Both the position numbers and the translations under genes were made by a program. From Patescibacteria group bacterium (GTDB lineage Bacteria > Patescibacteriota > Minisyncoccia > Phycocordibacterales > Phycocordibacteraceae), in the NCBI GenBank assembly GCA_018826905.1, contig JAHJYC010000004.1, positions 62,674 through 126,673 of the forward strand: DNA of 64,000 nucleotides. Direction: 5' to 3'. Positions 8,946 through 14,905 of this stretch are shown in pieces (positions within the stretch are counted from its first letter, which is position 1; each line of letters opens with the position of its first letter). The notes beneath the pieces are model-generated. The model was not told the DNA's origin, searched no databases, and saw nothing but the letters and a program-made list of their open reading frames with translations.

Positions 8946-8973
8946 ACTATACAACAGGATAGGGTTTTGTCTA
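8946..8973 (-). promoter_or_regulatory. sigma70-like promoter (TAGACA-N16-TATAGT) for the 8161-8910 gene
   Basis: Hexamers read on minus strand with 16-nt spacer, ~35 nt upstream of the SD/ATG. Confidence 0.45.
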
Positions 8974-8980
8974 TTTTCGT

Positions 8981-9003
8981 AGACTGGGAAGATGTTGAAA
9001 TTA
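8981..9003 (+). repeat. island repeat copy z (degenerate; ACTGGGAAGATGTTGAAA)
   Basis: Matches the 3' half of consensus TTGCTGGG-N5-TGGGACGATGTTGGAACC; overlaps the stop of the 9001-9243 gene. Confidence 0.6.
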
Positions 9004-9243
9004 TTCTTCTCCCAAAAGTATAAAGCGCGGACGCACAACACCATCTGGCCACTCAATTTCCTCAACGAACTCGTCTACATCGCGATGTTTAATTTTGCCG
9101 TACGTATGGGAAACATACACAACTCCTCCCGCATTCCCCTTTCGTTCGTTTGTGGTTTCTTCCGTAACAAAAAGAACAGTGTACAGACCCCCTTTATAGT
9201 GCTGGTATGTCTTACCTGATTGGATTACTTCCTCTTTATTCAT
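9001..9243 (-). CDS. DUF1653-like small protein
   Basis: HYKGGLYTV motif typical of DUF1653; leaderless: TATAAT sits 6 nt upstream of ATG. Confidence 0.55.
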   Translation of the reverse strand: MNKEEVIQSGKTYQHYKGGLYTVLFVTEETTNERKGNAGGVVYVSHTYGKIKHRDVDEFVEEIEWPDGVVRPRFILLGEE

Positions 9244-9249
9244 AAGAGC

Positions 9250-9255
9250 ATTATA
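9250..9255 (-). promoter_or_regulatory. -10 box TATAAT, 6 nt upstream of the ATG of the 9001-9243 gene (leaderless)
   Basis: Perfect TATAAT on minus strand immediately before the start codon; no SD. Confidence 0.5.
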
Positions 9256-9259
9256 GCGT

Positions 9260-9287
9260 GCTGGGTGTGCGGGACGATGTTGGAACC
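9260..9287 (+). repeat. island repeat copy a
   Basis: GCTGGGTGTGCGGGACGATGTTGGAACC. Confidence 0.8.
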
Positions 9288-9337
9288 TTTCTAGCCATGT
9301 ATACTAAGTACTTGGAAGTACACCCTAGGAGCAAGTG

Positions 9338-9568
9338 ATGTCTAATCCGTCATCCGCACCACCTGAAGAAATCGTTCTTCAGCCCTTTCGTCCCCACCTC
9401 TCGCGCGACACACAACACGATACCTTAGAGTATCTAGAAGCCGATGCTTCGGTTACTGTGGAGCAGATTCCTGGCAGTCGCATCGTTCTAATGCGCGACA
9501 GCACATCAGGAAAGGTTGTGGGTGTGCGAATTGAATCCTACTCCAGCATCCCAGTCATTGACGCCTGA
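9338..9568 (+). CDS. DUF2283-like small protein
   Basis: AGGAG SD 7 nt upstream of ATG; DTLEYLEAD...VVGVRIE pattern resembles DUF2283; own hairpin terminator. Confidence 0.5.
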   Translation: MSNPSSAPPEEIVLQPFRPHLSRDTQHDTLEYLEADASVTVEQIPGSRIVLMRDSTSGKVVGVRIESYSSIPVIDA

Positions 9569-9573
9569 ATCCT

Positions 9574-9623
9574 GCCGTCTCCTTTCTCTAACTAGAGAAC
9601 CATTTAGGAGACGGCTTTTTTAT
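9574..9623 (+). terminator. Rho-independent terminator (GCCGTCTCC...GGAGACGGC plus TTTTTT)
   Basis: Long inverted repeat followed by T-run after the 9338-9568 gene. Confidence 0.7.
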
Positions 9624-9647
9624 TGCTAGCTGGGACGACGTGGGCCC
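9622..9647 (+). repeat. island repeat copy (shortened: TTGCTAGCTGGGACGACGTGGGCCC)
   Basis: Abuts the stop codon of the 9647-10294 gene. Confidence 0.55.
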
Positions 9648-10294
9648 TACTTCTTTCTGCCAACAAATCGCACGAGGTTTGAATTTCCAACGGCACGATC
9701 CTTGAAGGTCTCGCCGGACTCATCGAGAATCTCTGTCTCAAAGTCTTCTGTAAATCTTTTTAGGGAGTCTGCACTGAAATAGCGCTTCTTAATACCGTTC
9801 ACAACAAAGTAATCATCCTCTATGCGCTCACCATTTCCATACTCTGAATCATGTACCGAGTTAAGAAGGAGGGTTAGCACGCCGTTTCGCTTCAGTACAC
9901 GAGCAAACTCTTTCATGATCTGCTGTGTGGTCTCTGAAGAGAAGTAGTGTGCAGCAAGATGGCAATGCACAACATCAAATTCAGCATCCGGGAATGGTAG
10001 GGACTCCGCAAGATCAGCCTGGATAAAGGTCACACGATCCTTTAGTTCTGCAGAAGTCTTTTCAATGGCTCTCGCGATACCTTCTGAGGCAAAATCTATT
10101 CCTATAACTTCGTAGCCCTTACTAGCGAAAAATCGGGAGTCTTGTCCTTGTCCGCAGCCGGCATCAAGTACCTTTCCCTCACTCGGAAAGTATTCCAACA
10201 CTGACTCTGCAAACATGGTCGGCTTGTGGATCCACTCTGCATCAGAGTACTTCTCGTGCGCTCCTTCCCAATACTGTCTTGGTTCTCTTTCCAT
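9647..10294 (-). CDS. class I SAM-dependent methyltransferase
   Basis: VLDAGCGQGQD motif I; acidic motif II (VIGIDFA). Confidence 0.8.
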   Translation of the reverse strand: MEREPRQYWEGAHEKYSDAEWIHKPTMFAESVLEYFPSEGKVLDAGCGQGQDSRFFASKGYEVIGIDFASEGIARAIEKTSAELKDRVTFIQADLAESLPFPDAEFDVVHCHLAAHYFSSETTQQIMKEFARVLKRNGVLTLLLNSVHDSEYGNGERIEDDYFVVNGIKKRYFSADSLKRFTEDFETEILDESGETFKDRAVGNSNLVRFVGRKK

Positions 10295-10311
10295 ATAGGG
10301 ATATTACACTA

Positions 10312-10338
10312 GCCGGGGGTCTTGGACGGTGTTGGAAC
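10312..10338 (+). repeat. island repeat copy b
   Basis: GCCGGGGGTCTTGGACGGTGTTGGAAC. Confidence 0.75.
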
Positions 10339-10340
10339 TT

Positions 10341-13069: not shown

Positions 13070-13070
13070 A

Positions 13071-13583
13071 TTACGAATTCATATATTCTTCAAGGAAAGT
13101 TATCTCGCGCTTCAGGATAAAATTCCCCTCGTACTTCTTTGGCTCATCCGTCTTCATTTTCGCTAACACTTCTCCCGGAGTAATCCATAGAGTAGTCTGT
13201 CCTTCCTCAATTTCACCTTCCTCTAGCTTTGGTGTTCCGATAGCACCGACTACTTGAGCTACGAAGCAGAAAGAGATATGTAACAGACTCAACTTGTTTC
13301 TGTATTCAATACACATGCCGAGCGGGTTTAGGATCTTAGAATCACACCCTACTTCTTCAAGAATCTCTCGCTTCAAGGCTTCTTCCAAAGACTCACCTGG
13401 ATCTACTCCTCCTCCCGGAAGCTTGTGGTAAGTATAGTTTTGAAGATACTGAGTTGCCATTCTTCCCTCGGAGTCTAGAAGAATCGCACGTGCACTTTTG
13501 CGCAGCGTGTAGGCACTATTCAATTGTTCGAATTGGTCACTTAGACCTAATGACCCATCACTGATTTCGGTAAGAAGTCTCAT
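13071..13583 (-). CDS. NUDIX hydrolase
   Basis: Nudix box GGGVDPGESLEEALKREILEEVGC. Confidence 0.8.
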   Translation of the reverse strand: MRLLTEISDGSLGLSDQFEQLNSAYTLRKSARAILLDSEGRMATQYLQNYTYHKLPGGGVDPGESLEEALKREILEEVGCDSKILNPLGMCIEYRNKLSLLHISFCFVAQVVGAIGTPKLEEGEIEEGQTTLWITPGEVLAKMKTDEPKKYEGNFILKREITFLEEYMNS

Positions 13584-13604
13584 ATCTCAATATGGTATCA
13601 AACA

Positions 13605-13634
13605 TTGCTGGGAGTGTGGGACGATGTTGGAACC
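13605..13634 (+). repeat. island repeat copy f (near-consensus)
   Basis: TTGCTGGGAGTGTGGGACGATGTTGGAACC. Confidence 0.85.
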
Positions 13635-13680
13635 CTTATAGCGGCGTGCTAGTGTGCGCTCAGGGAAGGAGGAGTTCCTC

Positions 13681-13989
13681 ATGATACTTGTTGAAGACGC
13701 TACCGGAAGAAGGTCGCTGCGGTACGGCCCGTATGAGCGCGTCTTGAAGACGGCAGGCTACCATGCTCTGGCTGTATTCATTGTCATTGCTGGCTTCCTT
13801 GTAACCTTCGCCATGATGGCCTCAGCGCCAGCACTGAAGTCCGCTGCAGGCTTAATTGCTTTTGCCATCCTCGCCGCAGCGTCCAGACCCTATATCTTGG
13901 CTTGCGAGGTCTGGAGGTACAACGAGGCTGAAGATGATGTCGCCCTGTTCCGGAAAACCGGCAACGCTATGCCGCTCTTCCTCAAATAG
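13681..13989 (+). CDS. small integral membrane protein
   Basis: GGAAGGAGGAG SD then ATG (MILVED...); two TM helices. Confidence 0.5.
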   Translation: MILVEDATGRRSLRYGPYERVLKTAGYHALAVFIVIAGFLVTFAMMASAPALKSAAGLIAFAILAAASRPYILACEVWRYNEAEDDVALFRKTGNAMPLFLK

Positions 13990-14053
13990 ACGCGAAGAGC
14001 GGACGAGCACCACGACCCGACACGAAAGTGCTGGGTCTTTTTCTTTGGGTTAT

Positions 14054-14081
14054 TTGCTGGTTCTCTAGACGATGCTGGAAC
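14054..14081 (+). repeat. island repeat copy j
   Basis: TTGCTGGTTCTCTAGACGATGCTGGAAC; in tandem with copy k with no gene between. Confidence 0.7.
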
Positions 14082-14105
14082 GCTTACAACCATCTCTTAT
14101 CCTGT

Positions 14106-14135
14106 TAGCTGGCAGTCTGGGACGATGTTGGAACC
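14106..14135 (+). repeat. island repeat copy k (near-consensus)
   Basis: TAGCTGGCAGTCTGGGACGATGTTGGAACC; abuts the stop of the 14139 gene. Confidence 0.85.
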
Positions 14136-14138
14136 TTC

Positions 14139-14468
14139 CTAGAAAAGCAAACCCAAAAGTTCGTAGAAGGTCAGTCCGAGCACTGCACTAACGCCCATGA
14201 GCATTAAGAGCAATAACATTCCTATAATTGGAAGTAGACGGAATGCGAATCCGAACCAAAAGTCTATTGGTTCATGTTTTCTGCTTACATACTTCGGCAT
14301 TCCCGTTGAGTACCAAAAGGATCTAGTCAAAGATTGAAAGAATGGAAAACGAGCAGCTCCCATTATTCTTCCTTCTCTTATATGACCGTATATAAGAGCT
14401 CCAGAAAGTAGTAGAGGTACTGCGACAATTATTACTATAAGAAGTATAGATTGCAGAGGAATATCCAT
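14139..14468 (-). CDS. small integral membrane hypothetical protein
   Basis: Three TM helices; leaderless (TAGATT 6 nt upstream of ATG). Confidence 0.5.
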   Translation of the reverse strand: MDIPLQSILLIVIIVAVPLLLSGALIYGHIREGRIMGAARFPFFQSLTRSFWYSTGMPKYVSRKHEPIDFWFGFAFRLLPIIGMLLLLMLMGVSAVLGLTFYELLGLLF

Positions 14469-14491
14469 ATCATGAATCTAGCACAGAAGTG

Positions 14492-14521
14492 TTGCTGGGT
14501 ATCTGGGACGATGTTGGAACC
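14492..14521 (+). repeat. island repeat copy g (consensus)
   Basis: TTGCTGGGTATCTGGGACGATGTTGGAACC; overlaps the stop of the 14521 gene. Confidence 0.85.
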
Positions 14522-14855
14522 TACGTCTTAGAACTATCTAGCGATAAGTCTTCTGAATCCAAGTTTGCTCTGGCTTCTGCTTGGGTTAGATAGTCCAGAA
14601 TTTCTAACTGAGATGCCTTTCCGGCTATTTCTCCTCCTTCTTTTCTATCAACAAAGCGACCGGTATCTGTTACAAATCCATCTTCTATTGGTTCTTTCGA
14701 CTCAAGCCAGTCTGGATGATCCTTCTCCATTTCAGCAACAGCATCCACATGCCCCACACCGGTGTACCTCTGGCCACGAAAAATAATAGCTGAGGCTACA
14801 ACTTTCTCTGGAGGTCTATTTCCAGACTCGGTAGTTAGTTTTTCCATTCTGGAAA
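14521..14855 (-). CDS. hypothetical protein (start moved to MEK... because the track's N-terminus is encoded by the repeat)
   Basis: TATACT -10 box 7 nt upstream of the internal ATG; the upstream part of the track ORF is the translated repeat copy. Confidence 0.45.
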
Positions 14856-14876
14856 GTATACCTGATTGGTTTGGCT

Positions 14877-14905
14877 GGGGGTGGGACGATGTTGGAGCCA
14901 CTATG
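14877..14905 (+). repeat. island repeat copy g'
   Basis: TTGGCTGGGGGTGGGACGATGTTGGAGCC. Confidence 0.8.

Follow-up and report, generated by a model that had tools for sequence, protein, structure and literature searches.

The 6-kb cluster of small genes adjoining tRNA-Gln in the window (the whole 64-kb stretch of DNA analysed here, from an ultra-small CPR/Patescibacteria bacterium) is probably a chromosomal array in which mobile cassettes of one gene each would be bounded by recombination sites and served, in an integron-like manner, by a putative enzyme encoded at an unlinked locus. The sites follow a strict grammar and recur across CPR genomes, their cargo is hypervariable and turns over within conserved frames, and the points of exchange lie at the 3' edges of two kinds of site, A and B. 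The first-pass annotation had suggested a repeat-delimited cassette array that follows integron-like logic without being a classical attC/IntI integron; our analyses support this proposal, which came through both of the tests suggested with it.

Scanning the 64-kb window with a position weight matrix (PWM) of the 18-nt core TGGGACGATGTTGGAACC places 14 copies of site B at 8973-14899, all with the core on the + strand (core starts 8985, 9270, 9631, 10322, 10801, 11555, 12163, 12640, 13052, 13617, 14065, 14118, 14504 and 14882), which bears out the earlier count of 14 same-orientation copies confined to the island. Twelve of the 14 score 14.7-29.9 bits and copy 8985 scores 15.7 bits, while the weak copy 9631, at a chance-range 11.5 bits, was kept because its position fits and its upstream half matches; the best score in the rest of the window, 12.8 bits, falls inside the range of maxima from shuffled sequences (10.8-20.2). 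On the gene strand the consensus reads A.AAAGGTTCCAACATCGTCCCAGAC.GCCAGCAA, an asymmetric site of about 35 nt to which conservation is limited (1.5-1.9 bits per position across 18 nt) and which holds three phased YTGG(G/A) submotifs. The five-nucleotide spacer first assigned to it was one base too long (no match even with 3 mismatches allowed), whereas a spacer of four gives 4 matches against 0 expected. B folds no better than shuffled sequence (z-scores -1.0 to +0.6) and has no hairpin, dyad symmetry or T-arm pairing in the fold test; it has no Rfam match, and our literature search found no paper with the site sequence.

Every gene of the island follows the order site-gene-site in either orientation, and one interval between sites is empty (14083-14105; Table 1). 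This includes the three + strand genes formerly described as not repeat-flanked, each of which is bracketed by two copies, and the ORF called at 14521-14901 most likely starts at ATG 14848, which leaves it free of overlap with its upstream repeat. Other elements of the first description stand for the window: the distance from a stop codon to the repeat that follows is 0-9 nt, -10 boxes precede each ATG by 6-8 nt, and the cargo comprises DUF1653, two methyltransferases, DUF6653, His_Phos_1 and two NUDIX families (Pfam). The -10 boxes are TGn-extended and, at this distance from the ATG, imply leaderless mRNAs.

Table 1. Sites, putative cassettes and boundary features of the array, from the tRNA to the distal end.
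Feature	Coordinates	Strand	Evidence and remarks
tRNA-Gln(UUG)	15290..15361	-	ARAGORN + Rfam
Site A (first site)	15290-15312	-	tRNA-Gln 3' 23 nt, GGTTCGATCCCTAGTCTCCCAGC
Cassette 0, 72-aa opposite-strand gene	14968..15186	+	gene call in L001/L126
Cassette 0, own terminator	15259-15282		terminator scan; abuts tRNA end
B copy 1	14870..14899	-	PWM 27.3 bits; 1-nt indel in variable part
Cassette 1, 108 aa	14521..14848	-	precomputed Pfam T4_Y16D; leaderless, TATACT 7 nt before ATG
B copy 2	14492..14521	-	PWM 29.9 bits; exact match to corrected consensus
Cassette 2, 109-aa membrane protein	14139..14468	-	
B copy 3	14106..14135	-	PWM 29.9 bits
B copy 4	14053..14082	-	PWM 17.9 bits; geneless interval to copy 3 ('empty cassette')
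Cassette 4, opposite-strand 111-aa membrane protein	13654..13989	+	own SD + terminator
B copy 5	13605..13634	-	PWM 29.9 bits; corrected-consensus match
Cassette 5, NUDIX hydrolase, 170 aa	13071..13583	-	Pfam; leaderless, upstream TGATACCAT
B copy 6	13040..13069	-	PWM 25.1 bits
Cassette 6, small opposite-strand zinc-ribbon/membrane gene	12674..12996	+	
Cassette 6, canonical promoter	12678-12707		
Cassette 6, terminator	12999-13023		
B copy 7	12628..12657	-	PWM 23.6 bits
Cassette 7, NUDIX hydrolase, 142 aa	12180..12608	-	Pfam
B copy 8, degenerate	12151..12180	-	PWM 19.1 bits
Cassette 8, histidine phosphatase, 181 aa	11580..12125	-	Pfam
B copy 9	11543..11572	-	PWM 23.4 bits
Cassette 9, SAM methyltransferase, 230 aa	10825..11517	-	Pfam
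B copy 10, degenerate	10789..10818	-	PWM 14.7 bits
Cassette 10, DUF6653 membrane protein, 138 aa	10341..10757	-	Pfam
B copy 11	10310..10339	-	PWM 23.3 bits
Cassette 11, SAM methyltransferase, 215 aa	9647..10294	-	Pfam
B copy 12, weak, degenerate	9619..9648	-	PWM 11.5 bits
Cassette 12, opposite-strand 76-aa gene	9335..9568	+	own SD + hairpin terminator
B copy 13	9258..9287	-	PWM 28.2 bits; corrected-consensus match
Cassette 13, DUF1653, 80 aa	9001..9243	-	Pfam
B copy 14, degenerate, array's last site	8973..9002	-	PWM 15.7 bits
Distal boundary gene (p8161), 249 aa	8161..8910	-	no Pfam match; hairpin terminator behind gene
Distal boundary gene, canonical promoter	8973-8946		

The element had been thought to be possibly private to one lineage, yet its spread is of phylum scale. 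An exact-pattern scan of species-representative genomes returned at least 120 stretches against about 9 expected by chance on our own estimate; nearly all of the matches listed are Parcubacteria-type CPR genomes or MAGs, with same-orientation arrays at one-gene spacing. These matches comprise 86 assemblies with the site, 58 of them with two or more copies, and rescanning the 120 tiles listed gave 356 copies, with both strands occupied in only 6 tiles. A check proposed at the outset asked whether the repeat serves core genes as a generic promoter element: in the 86 assemblies listed, the site surrounds hypervariable small genes in arrays of constant orientation, a context that rules this candidate out. 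The 226 proteins encoded between sites fall into 211 clusters, 201 of which are singletons, and the 71 cassette proteins sampled matched only 36 Pfam families, each 1-4 times, in a mix of small enzymes; cassette 2 has only 2 homologues among 5.8 billion proteins. Where a cassette recurs, its neighbours differ in every genome. Site orientation is constant, yet roughly a third of the cassettes point the other way and carry their own promoter and terminator, while same-strand cassettes have a TGn -10 only, with neither -35 box nor terminator, so that B may also act in transcription.

The tRNA-Gln gene, left outside the system by the first-pass annotation, supplies with its 3' end the first site of the array. 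This end aligns to the repeat with a score of 11, against 3.0 +/- 1.5 for shuffles (0/2000 reach 11), and in 21 loci the first repeat is preceded, at a distance of up to 1.2 kb, by a tRNA-Gln on the same strand. Elsewhere site A is a 23-25-nt mimic of the tRNA end, (T)AGGTTCGAT(C/A)CCTAGTCT(G/C)CCAGCAA. On the same strand and within 1.5 kb upstream, it accompanies half of the multi-copy arrays (24/48) and 8 of the 41 single copies, against 1 occurrence on the opposite strand and 0 downstream; 144 kb of array interior contain none. The DNA just past tRNA-Gln is unrelated between syntenic relatives, and nearly all of 25 metagenome loci with an identical tRNA end differ right after it.

As the first-pass annotation had proposed to check, syntenic islands of relatives retain their flanks and differ in the genes that their conserved repeats enclose. 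Common to the window, UBA6241 and JAHJZL01 are dnaX, tRNA-Gln, an array and a p8161 homologue at its distal end (a gene that elsewhere is not array-specific); the three loci have flanks that are 77-88 % identical and arrays that share only 1-2 cassettes. Likewise, locus L021 consists of A and one B, and L110+L091, in the same frame with flanks 93-94 % identical, of A and six B. Cassette 8 recurs at 85 % nucleotide identity in UBA6241 (L094), promoter and downstream site included, between unrelated neighbours; cassette 2 recurs at 84 % in a different array (L019), and a cassette 6 homologue is present in L003. The comparison of 14139-14468 with JAUPKX bin.9, 84 % identical in a genome pair whose dnaX genes are 67.5 % identical, suggests horizontal transfer of this cassette, which would support the cassette reading.

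About six informative pairs of relatives define the boundaries: homology sets in or breaks off no more than 1-2 nt from where A or B ends on its 3' side (...CCAGCAA). In L056/L072, L021/L110 and L061/L075 it is lost exactly past ...GCCAGCAA, and, at strain level, L140 and L152 match at 100 % for over 1.5 kb, a stretch that runs across tRNA-Gln and a partial tRNA copy, and split exactly after CTCCTAGCCAA. One cassette sits behind A in L072 and behind B in L033 (86 % nucleotide identity), with homology running from 1-2 nt past the upstream site to the 3' end of the B that belongs to it. The downstream B co-varies with the cassette more than the upstream B does (0.80 vs 0.51; 0.91 vs 0.86). A and B have only 13 nt in common, not enough for RecA-dependent exchange.

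In this reading the array begins at the first site A, be it the tRNA-Gln 3' end or a mimic, and a cassette extends from just past the upstream ...CCAGCAA edge through its own terminal B of about 35 nt. Each brings its own expression signals, namely a TGn-extended -10 with a leaderless ATG on the same strand, or a full promoter and hairpin terminator on the opposite one. A sequence-specific recombinase, presumably encoded elsewhere in the genome, would excise and insert cassettes by recognising conserved sequence lying entirely 5' of the exchange point and cutting in or at the common CCAGCAA; insertion at the extreme 3' end would leave the tRNA intact. A tyrosine recombinase with one degenerate arm is one candidate; the other is an enzyme nicking 3' of its recognition sequence. 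As first reported, the window's annotation contains no recombinase, nor is one annotated in about 12 kb beyond it or present in the 29 families that most often flank arrays; phmmer with a few insensitive probes (XerC, lambda Int, Gin, Y1 transposase) over 1.23 Mb gave one XerC-like ORF and one weak Gin-like match, that is, chance level. Besides this missing recombinase, the lack of a dyad or hairpin in B counts against the cassette reading, as does the fact that neither an excised circle nor an empty-site allele was seen; the single further assembly of the window's own population is identical to the window.

We consider it unlikely that B is mainly a transcription element (an activator, repressor or insulator site, or a one-directional terminator), with turnover arising secondarily from homologous recombination or natural transformation between the repeated sites. 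Such an element could give same-strand cassettes the upstream activation and/or one-way termination for which they lack signals, and it would agree with the phased submotifs, a B-to-ATG distance peaking at 15-23 nt, the possible competence for DNA uptake to which DprA and pilus genes point, and the failure of flanking families and phmmer probes to yield a recombinase. However, the spacing from B to the -10 box ranges from 3 to 20 nt in the window, many copies have no gene to serve (a reverse-complement terminator, another B or a convergent gene comes next), and B keeps its orientation when the gene is inverted. The largely singleton cargo is no regulon, a tRNA-Gln 3' end or mimic as first site has no regulatory rationale, and A and B exchange the same cassette at junctions sharp to 1-2 nt despite their short common sequence. 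The operator or UP element and the RNA processing signal offered earlier as alternatives are possible as secondary roles, and B may additionally have a transcriptional one, but they leave the site grammar and the nucleotide-sharp homology breaks unexplained. As a main function, an RNA-level 3'-UTR or processing signal (e.g., tRNA-like punctuation) splitting transcripts into leaderless mRNAs seems extremely improbable: B does lie 0-10 nt past stop codons, shows partial likeness to the T-loop and the acceptor 3' strand of tRNA-Gln and precedes leaderless genes, but the fold and Rfam results speak against it, every cassette comes with a -10 box of its own, spaced to suit a leaderless start, B beside opposite-strand genes would yield an antisense transcript or none, and cassette turnover stays unexplained.

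Partial tRNA copies starting in the D or anticodon region are a classic integrase footprint, and tandem tRNA-Gln copies of this kind occur in several loci. Together with the adjoining tRNA-Gln and the likeness of both ends of B to the tRNA 3' end, they would fit conventional integrative elements that target tRNA genes (phage, island or tycheposon-like) and have piled up and decayed to single genes, B being a degraded tRNA-Gln att repeat; in tycheposons, serial integration at a tRNA moves older elements distally (10.1101/2020.12.28.424599). We regard this as very unlikely, given that B is distinct and conserved in the 86 listed assemblies with no gradient of decaying tRNA copies, that site A never occurs within arrays, that each unit is one gene whose expression signals are tight and intact, with no integrase remnant detected, and that some arrays begin at A mimics far from any tRNA, after YchF, M23 peptidase and other genes.

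Returning to the array of mobile cassettes, it does not qualify as an integron proper on any of the features tested (no IntI, no attC), and the reasons first given against attC hold, B being short, conserved in sequence and free of a hairpin. Without dyad symmetry, B also differs from the core sites of known tyrosine and serine recombinases. The same layout, filled with almost wholly different genes, is found in dozens of related species and so looks like an undescribed, integron-like route of gene capture and swapping.

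The repeat recognised in the first-pass annotation, here called site B, is present where that annotation had placed it, as 14 copies that an 18-nt core PWM detects on the plus strand only, 12 of them strong (14.7-29.9 bits) and one weak (see table), and in the rest of the 64 kb the PWM scan gave no score above the range of shuffled sequence. The consensus first proposed, with an N5 spacer, matches nothing even when three mismatches are allowed because its spacer is one base too long; once corrected to N4 it matches four copies versus none expected. Read on the strand of the genes (minus), site B is GGTTCCAACATCGTCCCA-N4/5-CCCAGCAA. 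It starts in the window 0-9 nt past the stop codon of the preceding gene and is followed by a variable stretch of 3-20 nt and then by a TGn-extended -10 box lying 6-8 nt ahead of the next ATG, so that the mRNAs should be leaderless. Three plus-strand genes that had been regarded as free of flanking repeats are in fact each bracketed by B copies, and the site-gene-site layout therefore holds for every gene; a single interval between B copies in the window carries no gene. The cargo families reported for the window stand as described. The chromosome is bacterial (topA, clpB, gyrA, a short infB, dnaX, serS and relA are present), and the closest loci among the matches listed belong to Patescibacteria/Parcubacteria MAGs. 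We also observed a TGn-extended -10 box about 6-8 nt from the ATG outside the island, and this way of initiating translation without a leader looks genome-general rather than island-specific.

Site B does not appear to be a structured element. Folded as DNA on either strand with 15 nt on each side, it reaches z values of -1.0 to +0.6 relative to shuffles, that is, no hairpin; no dyad symmetry is visible on inspection, and Rfam returns no family for the site, the tRNAs being the sole matches both at the gathering threshold and with E up to 1. By-eye comparison with known sigma-factor promoters (sigma-54, ECF) and with a Ter site led us to reject both, their spacing or strand being unfitting. 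A plus-strand segment of B, ATGTTGGAAC, looks like ATGTTGTAAC, which we take to be the core of the E. coli replication terminator (Ter), and the resemblance is probably a coincidence.

Far from being private to one genome, B is a phylum-scale sequence. An exact-pattern scan of one genome per species, in which each stretch had to hold one exact match, yielded at least 120 matching stretches versus about nine expected by chance, an estimate based on 37 bits of pattern, 596 Gb and both strands. Among the matches listed, all come from CPR MAGs except for six single-copy ones in unrelated phyla, which are at chance level. The CPR names listed, which are NCBI organism labels and as such unreliable on MAGs, comprise Parcubacteria/Paceibacterota, Nomura-, Kaiser-, Adler-, Campbell-, Azam-, Colwell-, Nealson-, Moranii- and Berkelbacteria, and many of the matches listed carry the label Saccharibacteria. 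Rescanning the listed tiles gave 356 B copies, with both strands used in just 6 of 120 tiles, and at least 83 arrays hold two or more copies at a median spacing of 580 bp. Conservation spans about 35 nt only, A.AAAGGTTCCAACATCGTCCCAGAC.GCCAGCAA, both flanks being unconserved. The viral contig collection returned no match, so that within it B serves neither as a phage promoter nor as an att site. One contig of 7 kb, labelled 'Candidatus Woesearchaeota archaeon' (L045, CAYHLN010000038.1), carries six B sites and a histidine-phosphatase cassette with 75 % nucleotide identity to that of the window; it is most likely a mis-binned CPR contig, and otherwise a cross-domain occurrence.

Two thirds of the inter-site genes, which were simple ORF calls in loci other than the window, point the same way as the site and are preceded by the TGn -10 and a leaderless ATG alone, with neither -35 box nor terminator. 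The remaining third are opposite and bring their own hairpin terminator by one site and their own promoter by the next, where the -35 is frequently a canonical TTGACA some 7 nt away from the site; gene orientation never changes the orientation of the site. The cargo units are single genes (median 141 aa), and 226 inter-site proteins fall into 211 clusters, of which 201 are singletons. Just 36 Pfam families were matched across 71 sampled proteins (HAD, AAA_33, NUDIX, HIT, His-phosphatase, HD, zeta toxin, cyclodipeptide synthase and others, one to four times each), and many cassette proteins therefore seem to lie outside Pfam; hydrolases and kinases that are small and handle nucleotides are numerous, and most of the proteins are of unknown function. 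For one window cassette (14139-14468) we found two homologues among 5.8 billion proteins. Such cargo is not a regulon.

Positions of the features discussed, in coordinates of the window or of the locus named (L numbers denote loci of other genomes)
Feature	Sequence	Position	Strand	Remark
B copies (14)	window	8985-14899	+	
Weak B copy	window	9631	+	11.5 bits
Interval between B copies without gene	window	14083-14105		
First minus-strand gene	window	ATG 14848	-	most likely start
Segment ATGTTGGAAC of B	window	14511-14520	+	one example
tRNA-Gln	window	15290-15361	-	
Distal boundary gene	window	8161-8910	-	
tRNA-like gene	window	7948-8023	-	Rfam tRNA 58 bits; 8-nt anticodon loop cTATCAgg; ARAGORN four-base anticodon 'atca'
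-10 box outside the island	window	gene 6852-7742		example, TGCTAATTT ahead of 7742
DprA and many T4SS_pilin-family genes	window	20153-20812, 27986-31418, 40248-43995 region		near the island
XerC-like tyrosine recombinase gene	L019	4198-5190	-	
LexA DNA-binding domain/S24 peptidase/C-5 cytosine DNA methyltransferase fusion	L025 and two other loci	5529-7115 (L025)	-	near arrays; recurs in three genomes
Sigma70 region 4 + HARE-HTH protein	L012 and three other loci	820-1935 (L012)	+	372 aa; ~3 kb from arrays
Tandem partial tRNA-Gln copies	L004	~1400-1720		
Tandem partial tRNA-Gln copies	L128	after 7844		
Tandem partial tRNA-Gln copies	L137	after 166		
Tandem partial tRNA-Gln copies	L140, L152	after the tRNA		
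Tandem partial tRNA-Gln copies	L146	after 2994		

The arrays open with a special first site, which we call A. In 21 loci a same-strand tRNA-Gln (UUG or CUG anticodon) lies at most 1.2 kb upstream of the first B, and its 3' end, AGGTTCGATCCCTAGTCTCCCAGCaa, aligns with B at both ends with a score of 11, versus 3.0 +/- 1.5 for shuffled sequences and reached by none of 2000 shuffles. Arrays without a full tRNA open with a mimic of 23-25 nt, (T)AGGTTCGAT(C/A)CCTAGTCT(G/C)CCAGCAA, which frequently adjoins a housekeeping gene (YchF or an M23 peptidase, for example) directly at its stop codon. Site A is found upstream and on the same strand of 24 of 48 multi-copy arrays and of 8 of 41 single copies, on the opposite strand in one case, and neither downstream of arrays nor anywhere inside 144 kb of them; it occurs at array starts only, the cassettes lie directly against it, and no integrase stands beside it. 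A and B have GGTTC in common at one end and AG(A/T)CTGCCAGCAA at the other, and nothing more. The tRNA-Gln is part of the cassette system, whose grammar is A-(cassette-B)n, each cassette being a gene with its own downstream B, with constant polarity of the sites. Several loci also carry, after an intact tRNA-Gln, tandem partial copies that begin in the D or anticodon region (see table); these are distinct from the A and B sites and represent the classic footprint of conventional integrases on the same tRNA. Just distal to the window array and to the terminator of its distal boundary gene lies a tRNA-like gene that may have decayed, or may encode a tRNA of a type that reads UGA or suppresses frameshifts.

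Comparison of related loci indicates that this location is kept while its content turns over. The window and two syntenic relatives, UBA6241 (contiguous tiles L060 and L094) and JAHJZL01 (L003), have a common frame of dnaX, tRNA-Gln, array and a homologue of the distal boundary gene; their flanks are 77-88 % identical, but they have only one or two cassettes in common. In the same way, L021 contains a single B and one tiny interval between the first site and B, while the same frame in another genome (L110 and L091), with flanks 93-94 % identical, holds six cassettes. Recurring cassettes are few and their neighbours differ in every case. The ORF and its own 3' site move as a unit and are present in different arrays. 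A different array, in JAUPKX bin.9, holds a cassette that matches cassette 14139-14468 at 84 % nucleotide identity over gene and promoter, versus only 67.5 % identity between the dnaX genes of the two genomes, a disparity that points to horizontal transfer of this cassette. In the sole second assembly of the window's population that we found (SRR10598219), 13.3 kb were 100 % identical, without variation. DprA and many pilin genes near the island are consistent with a DNA uptake or transfer machinery that could feed the cassette pool.

Where the borders could be mapped, in about six informative pairs, the exchange points are nucleotide-sharp and lie at the 3' edge of the sites. Homology stops exactly past ...GCCAGCAA| of A in three pairs (L056/L072, L021/L110 and L061/L075). 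One cassette follows A in L072 and B in L033; the two copies are 86 % identical in nucleotides, and their homology opens 1-2 nt past the upstream site and closes where the cassette's own B ends on its 3' side. Cassettes move from genome to genome and can stand behind either A or B. In the closest pairs, variation in a cassette is matched more closely by the B downstream of it than by the one upstream (0.80 vs 0.51; 0.91 vs 0.86), rare last-base variants included, so that the cassette comprises everything from the junction to the end of its own 3' site. Two contigs from sister samples (L140 and L152) are 100 % identical over more than 1.5 kb, through the tRNA-Gln and a partial tRNA copy, and diverge exactly past CTCCTAGCCAA|. 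Almost all of 25 metagenome loci with an identical 32-nt tRNA end differ directly past that end, and about half of them have B sites within a few hundred bases.

From these borders we infer that cassettes would be exchanged by site-specific recombination, with an enzyme encoded elsewhere. RecA-dependent exchange needs more than the 13 nt common to A and B, which are too few for it, and the sharp junctions argue against crossovers spread through the repeat. The conserved sequence lies wholly 5' of the exchange point, and this one-sided conservation, together with the lack of dyad or hairpin, gives a geometry that fits either of two types of enzyme. One would be a tyrosine recombinase that uses the shared CCAGCAA as its overlap and has a degenerate second arm; the other would nick 3' of its own recognition sequence, in an HUH-like manner. 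Some integrase subfamilies are directed at the extreme 3' end of tRNA genes, an asymmetric target. It is tempting, and no more than tentative, to propose that CPR/Parcubacteria draw on one phylum-wide pool of single-gene cassettes and that these are moved by a recombinase of undescribed kind or specificity. Such a recombinase would act on a non-palindromic, unstructured site of about 35 nt located wholly to one side of the exchange point, and its docking site would be the extreme 3' end of tRNA-Gln or a 25-nt mimic behind housekeeping genes.

Other readings can be weighed against the same observations. A purely regulatory or insulator function of B, homologous recombination being incidental, would account for the absence of -35 boxes and terminators, yet it offers no explanation for the grammar of the first site, for orphan sites, for a polarity that stays fixed or for the exchange between A and B, and we consider it unlikely. 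The distance between B and the -10 box is not fixed in the window and many B copies have no downstream gene; B may still have a secondary transcriptional role for co-oriented cassettes, either as an upstream element or as a one-directional terminator. That the arrays are the remains of decayed conventional elements targeting tRNAs is highly improbable, given that B is a distinct sequence conserved phylum-wide and that A never occurs inside arrays. An RNA processing signal, for which B would be expected to have a structure that it lacks and which leaves cassette turnover unexplained, seems very unlikely.

No Pfam match to Phage_integrase or another recombinase was obtained in the window and about 12 kb beyond (~76 kb of contig), and the 29 most recurrent array-flanking families, all housekeeping, include no recombinase. 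A small set of phmmer probes (XerC, lambda Int, Mu Gin and a Y1 transposase) run against 2,693 ORFs in 1.23 Mb of array flanks retrieved one XerC-like ORF and one weak Gin-like match, both at chance level, and no Y1 homologue. The XerC-like gene, the sole clear tyrosine recombinase found by phmmer in that DNA, stops within 2-3 nt of the 3' edge of the final B of the array in its locus and is probably a chance neighbour. The distal boundary gene was rejected as the enzyme: it has no Pfam match and its homologues also occur outside arrays. Its family has invariant Cys/His motifs (N-C...H and D-H...C; window and L153-L155), and one homologue has as its neighbour an IS200/RAYT-like Y1_Tnp unit that is flanked by inverted repeats of its own; this unit we likewise rejected, since it is self-contained and its locus has neither A nor B sites. 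Two further proteins recur near arrays, namely a LexA/S24/C-5 methyltransferase fusion and a Sigma70 region 4/HARE-HTH protein; the latter is a predicted DNA-binding protein.

CPR/Patescibacteria account for much of bacterial diversity and have tiny, streamlined genomes. To our knowledge, descriptions of recognisable mobile elements in this group are few, and the gain and loss of their accessory genes are poorly understood. The arrays would be a dedicated gene-capture platform of CPR at conserved docking sites, a tRNA gene or positions behind housekeeping genes, filled with single self-expressed genes that differ almost wholly between species and even between co-occurring strains. If this is true, they would represent a second, independently evolved 'integron' with another chemistry or site logic, and potentially a compact tool for directional DNA insertion; should the recombinase be new, a one-sided 35-nt site with directional insertion would be of biotechnological interest. 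The enzyme acting on the short asymmetric site, the movement of cassettes as circles or by DNA uptake and the content of the pool are now testable. The 35-mer also provides a simple handle for mining the CPR accessory genome in metagenomes, and the arrays suggest natural sites at which genetic tools could be inserted into organisms that are very hard to manipulate.

Among known systems, REP/BIME sequences with RAYT are palindromic repeats scattered genome-wide and associated with a Y1 (RAYT) gene, whereas B is non-palindromic, confined to arrays and without a Y1 homologue in 1.23 Mb. The 'peel and paste' HUH elements of the IS200/IS605 type, like REP/RAYT systems, have ends whose recognition goes by subterminal hairpins, and a Y1 transposase in the element or in a nearby gene. 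With the arrays they share a recognised sequence entirely 5' of the cleavage, insertion in one orientation 3' of a specific target and a right end with the same cleavage context as the target; A and B differ in having no hairpin and, over the same flanks, no Y1 homologue near them. The pdif (XerC/D-site) modules of Acinetobacter plasmids likewise consist of small gene modules between short sites, the same module being found in different contexts, and the mover is presumably a housekeeping recombinase encoded elsewhere. Their sites of about 28 bp are, however, two-armed (11-6-11) and alternate in orientation, whereas A and B are asymmetric, all direct, chromosomal and anchored to a tRNA. Both pdif and IS200/IS605-type elements share single features only with the arrays.

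The Dehalococcoides ssrA islands are tRNA-anchored hypervariable islands that result from serial integration. Like these and the tycheposons, the arrays form a variable region that begins at the 3' part of a tRNA, with same-orientation repeats akin to the tRNA 3' end between units, a location that is kept while content is fluid, and streamlined hosts. The tycheposons of Prochlorococcus are multi-kb elements, 910 of 937 of which have a tyrosine recombinase, with frequent replication genes and with repeats that are literal partial tRNAs (10.1101/2020.12.28.424599). The arrays differ in that their units are single genes without integrase and their internal repeat B, a conserved sequence in its own right, is no copy of a tRNA.

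The likeness to integrons, and above all to sedentary chromosomal ones and CALIN, extends to a special first site followed by n units of cassette and site, a single orientation for all sites, occasional empty site-site spacing, mainly single small genes of great diversity and largely unknown function, genes mostly co-oriented with inverted ones having their own promoters, a 3' site that travels with the cassette, exchange at the site edge and a chromosomal location that persists while content turns over. The differences concern the parts. The intI gene, which lies adjacent to the integron array, encodes a tyrosine recombinase with an IntI-specific insertion, whereas our arrays have no adjacent IntI, and none in the ~76 kb or the 1.23 Mb of flanks. 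The attC sites are imperfect palindromes (R''-L''...L'-R') of 57-141 nt that fold into hairpins and conserve structure rather than sequence, unlike B, which is about 35 nt long, sequence-conserved, asymmetric and devoid of hairpin. The attI site sits beside intI, while the first site here is the 3' end of a tRNA gene or its mimic. Integron cassettes are mostly promoterless and expressed from a common Pc promoter, whereas each cassette here has its own promoter, a full one on the opposite-strand cassettes, and most of the mRNAs should lack a leader; several arrays per genome, behind housekeeping genes, are a further difference. We know of no such cassette arrays. The literature searched, PMC12455944 included, yielded neither a description of them nor a paper containing B. 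As far as that literature goes, the arrays are undescribed and belong to none of the systems compared; the defining parts of the integron (IntI, attC hairpin and Pc) are absent, yet the logic of the arrays is that of an integron.
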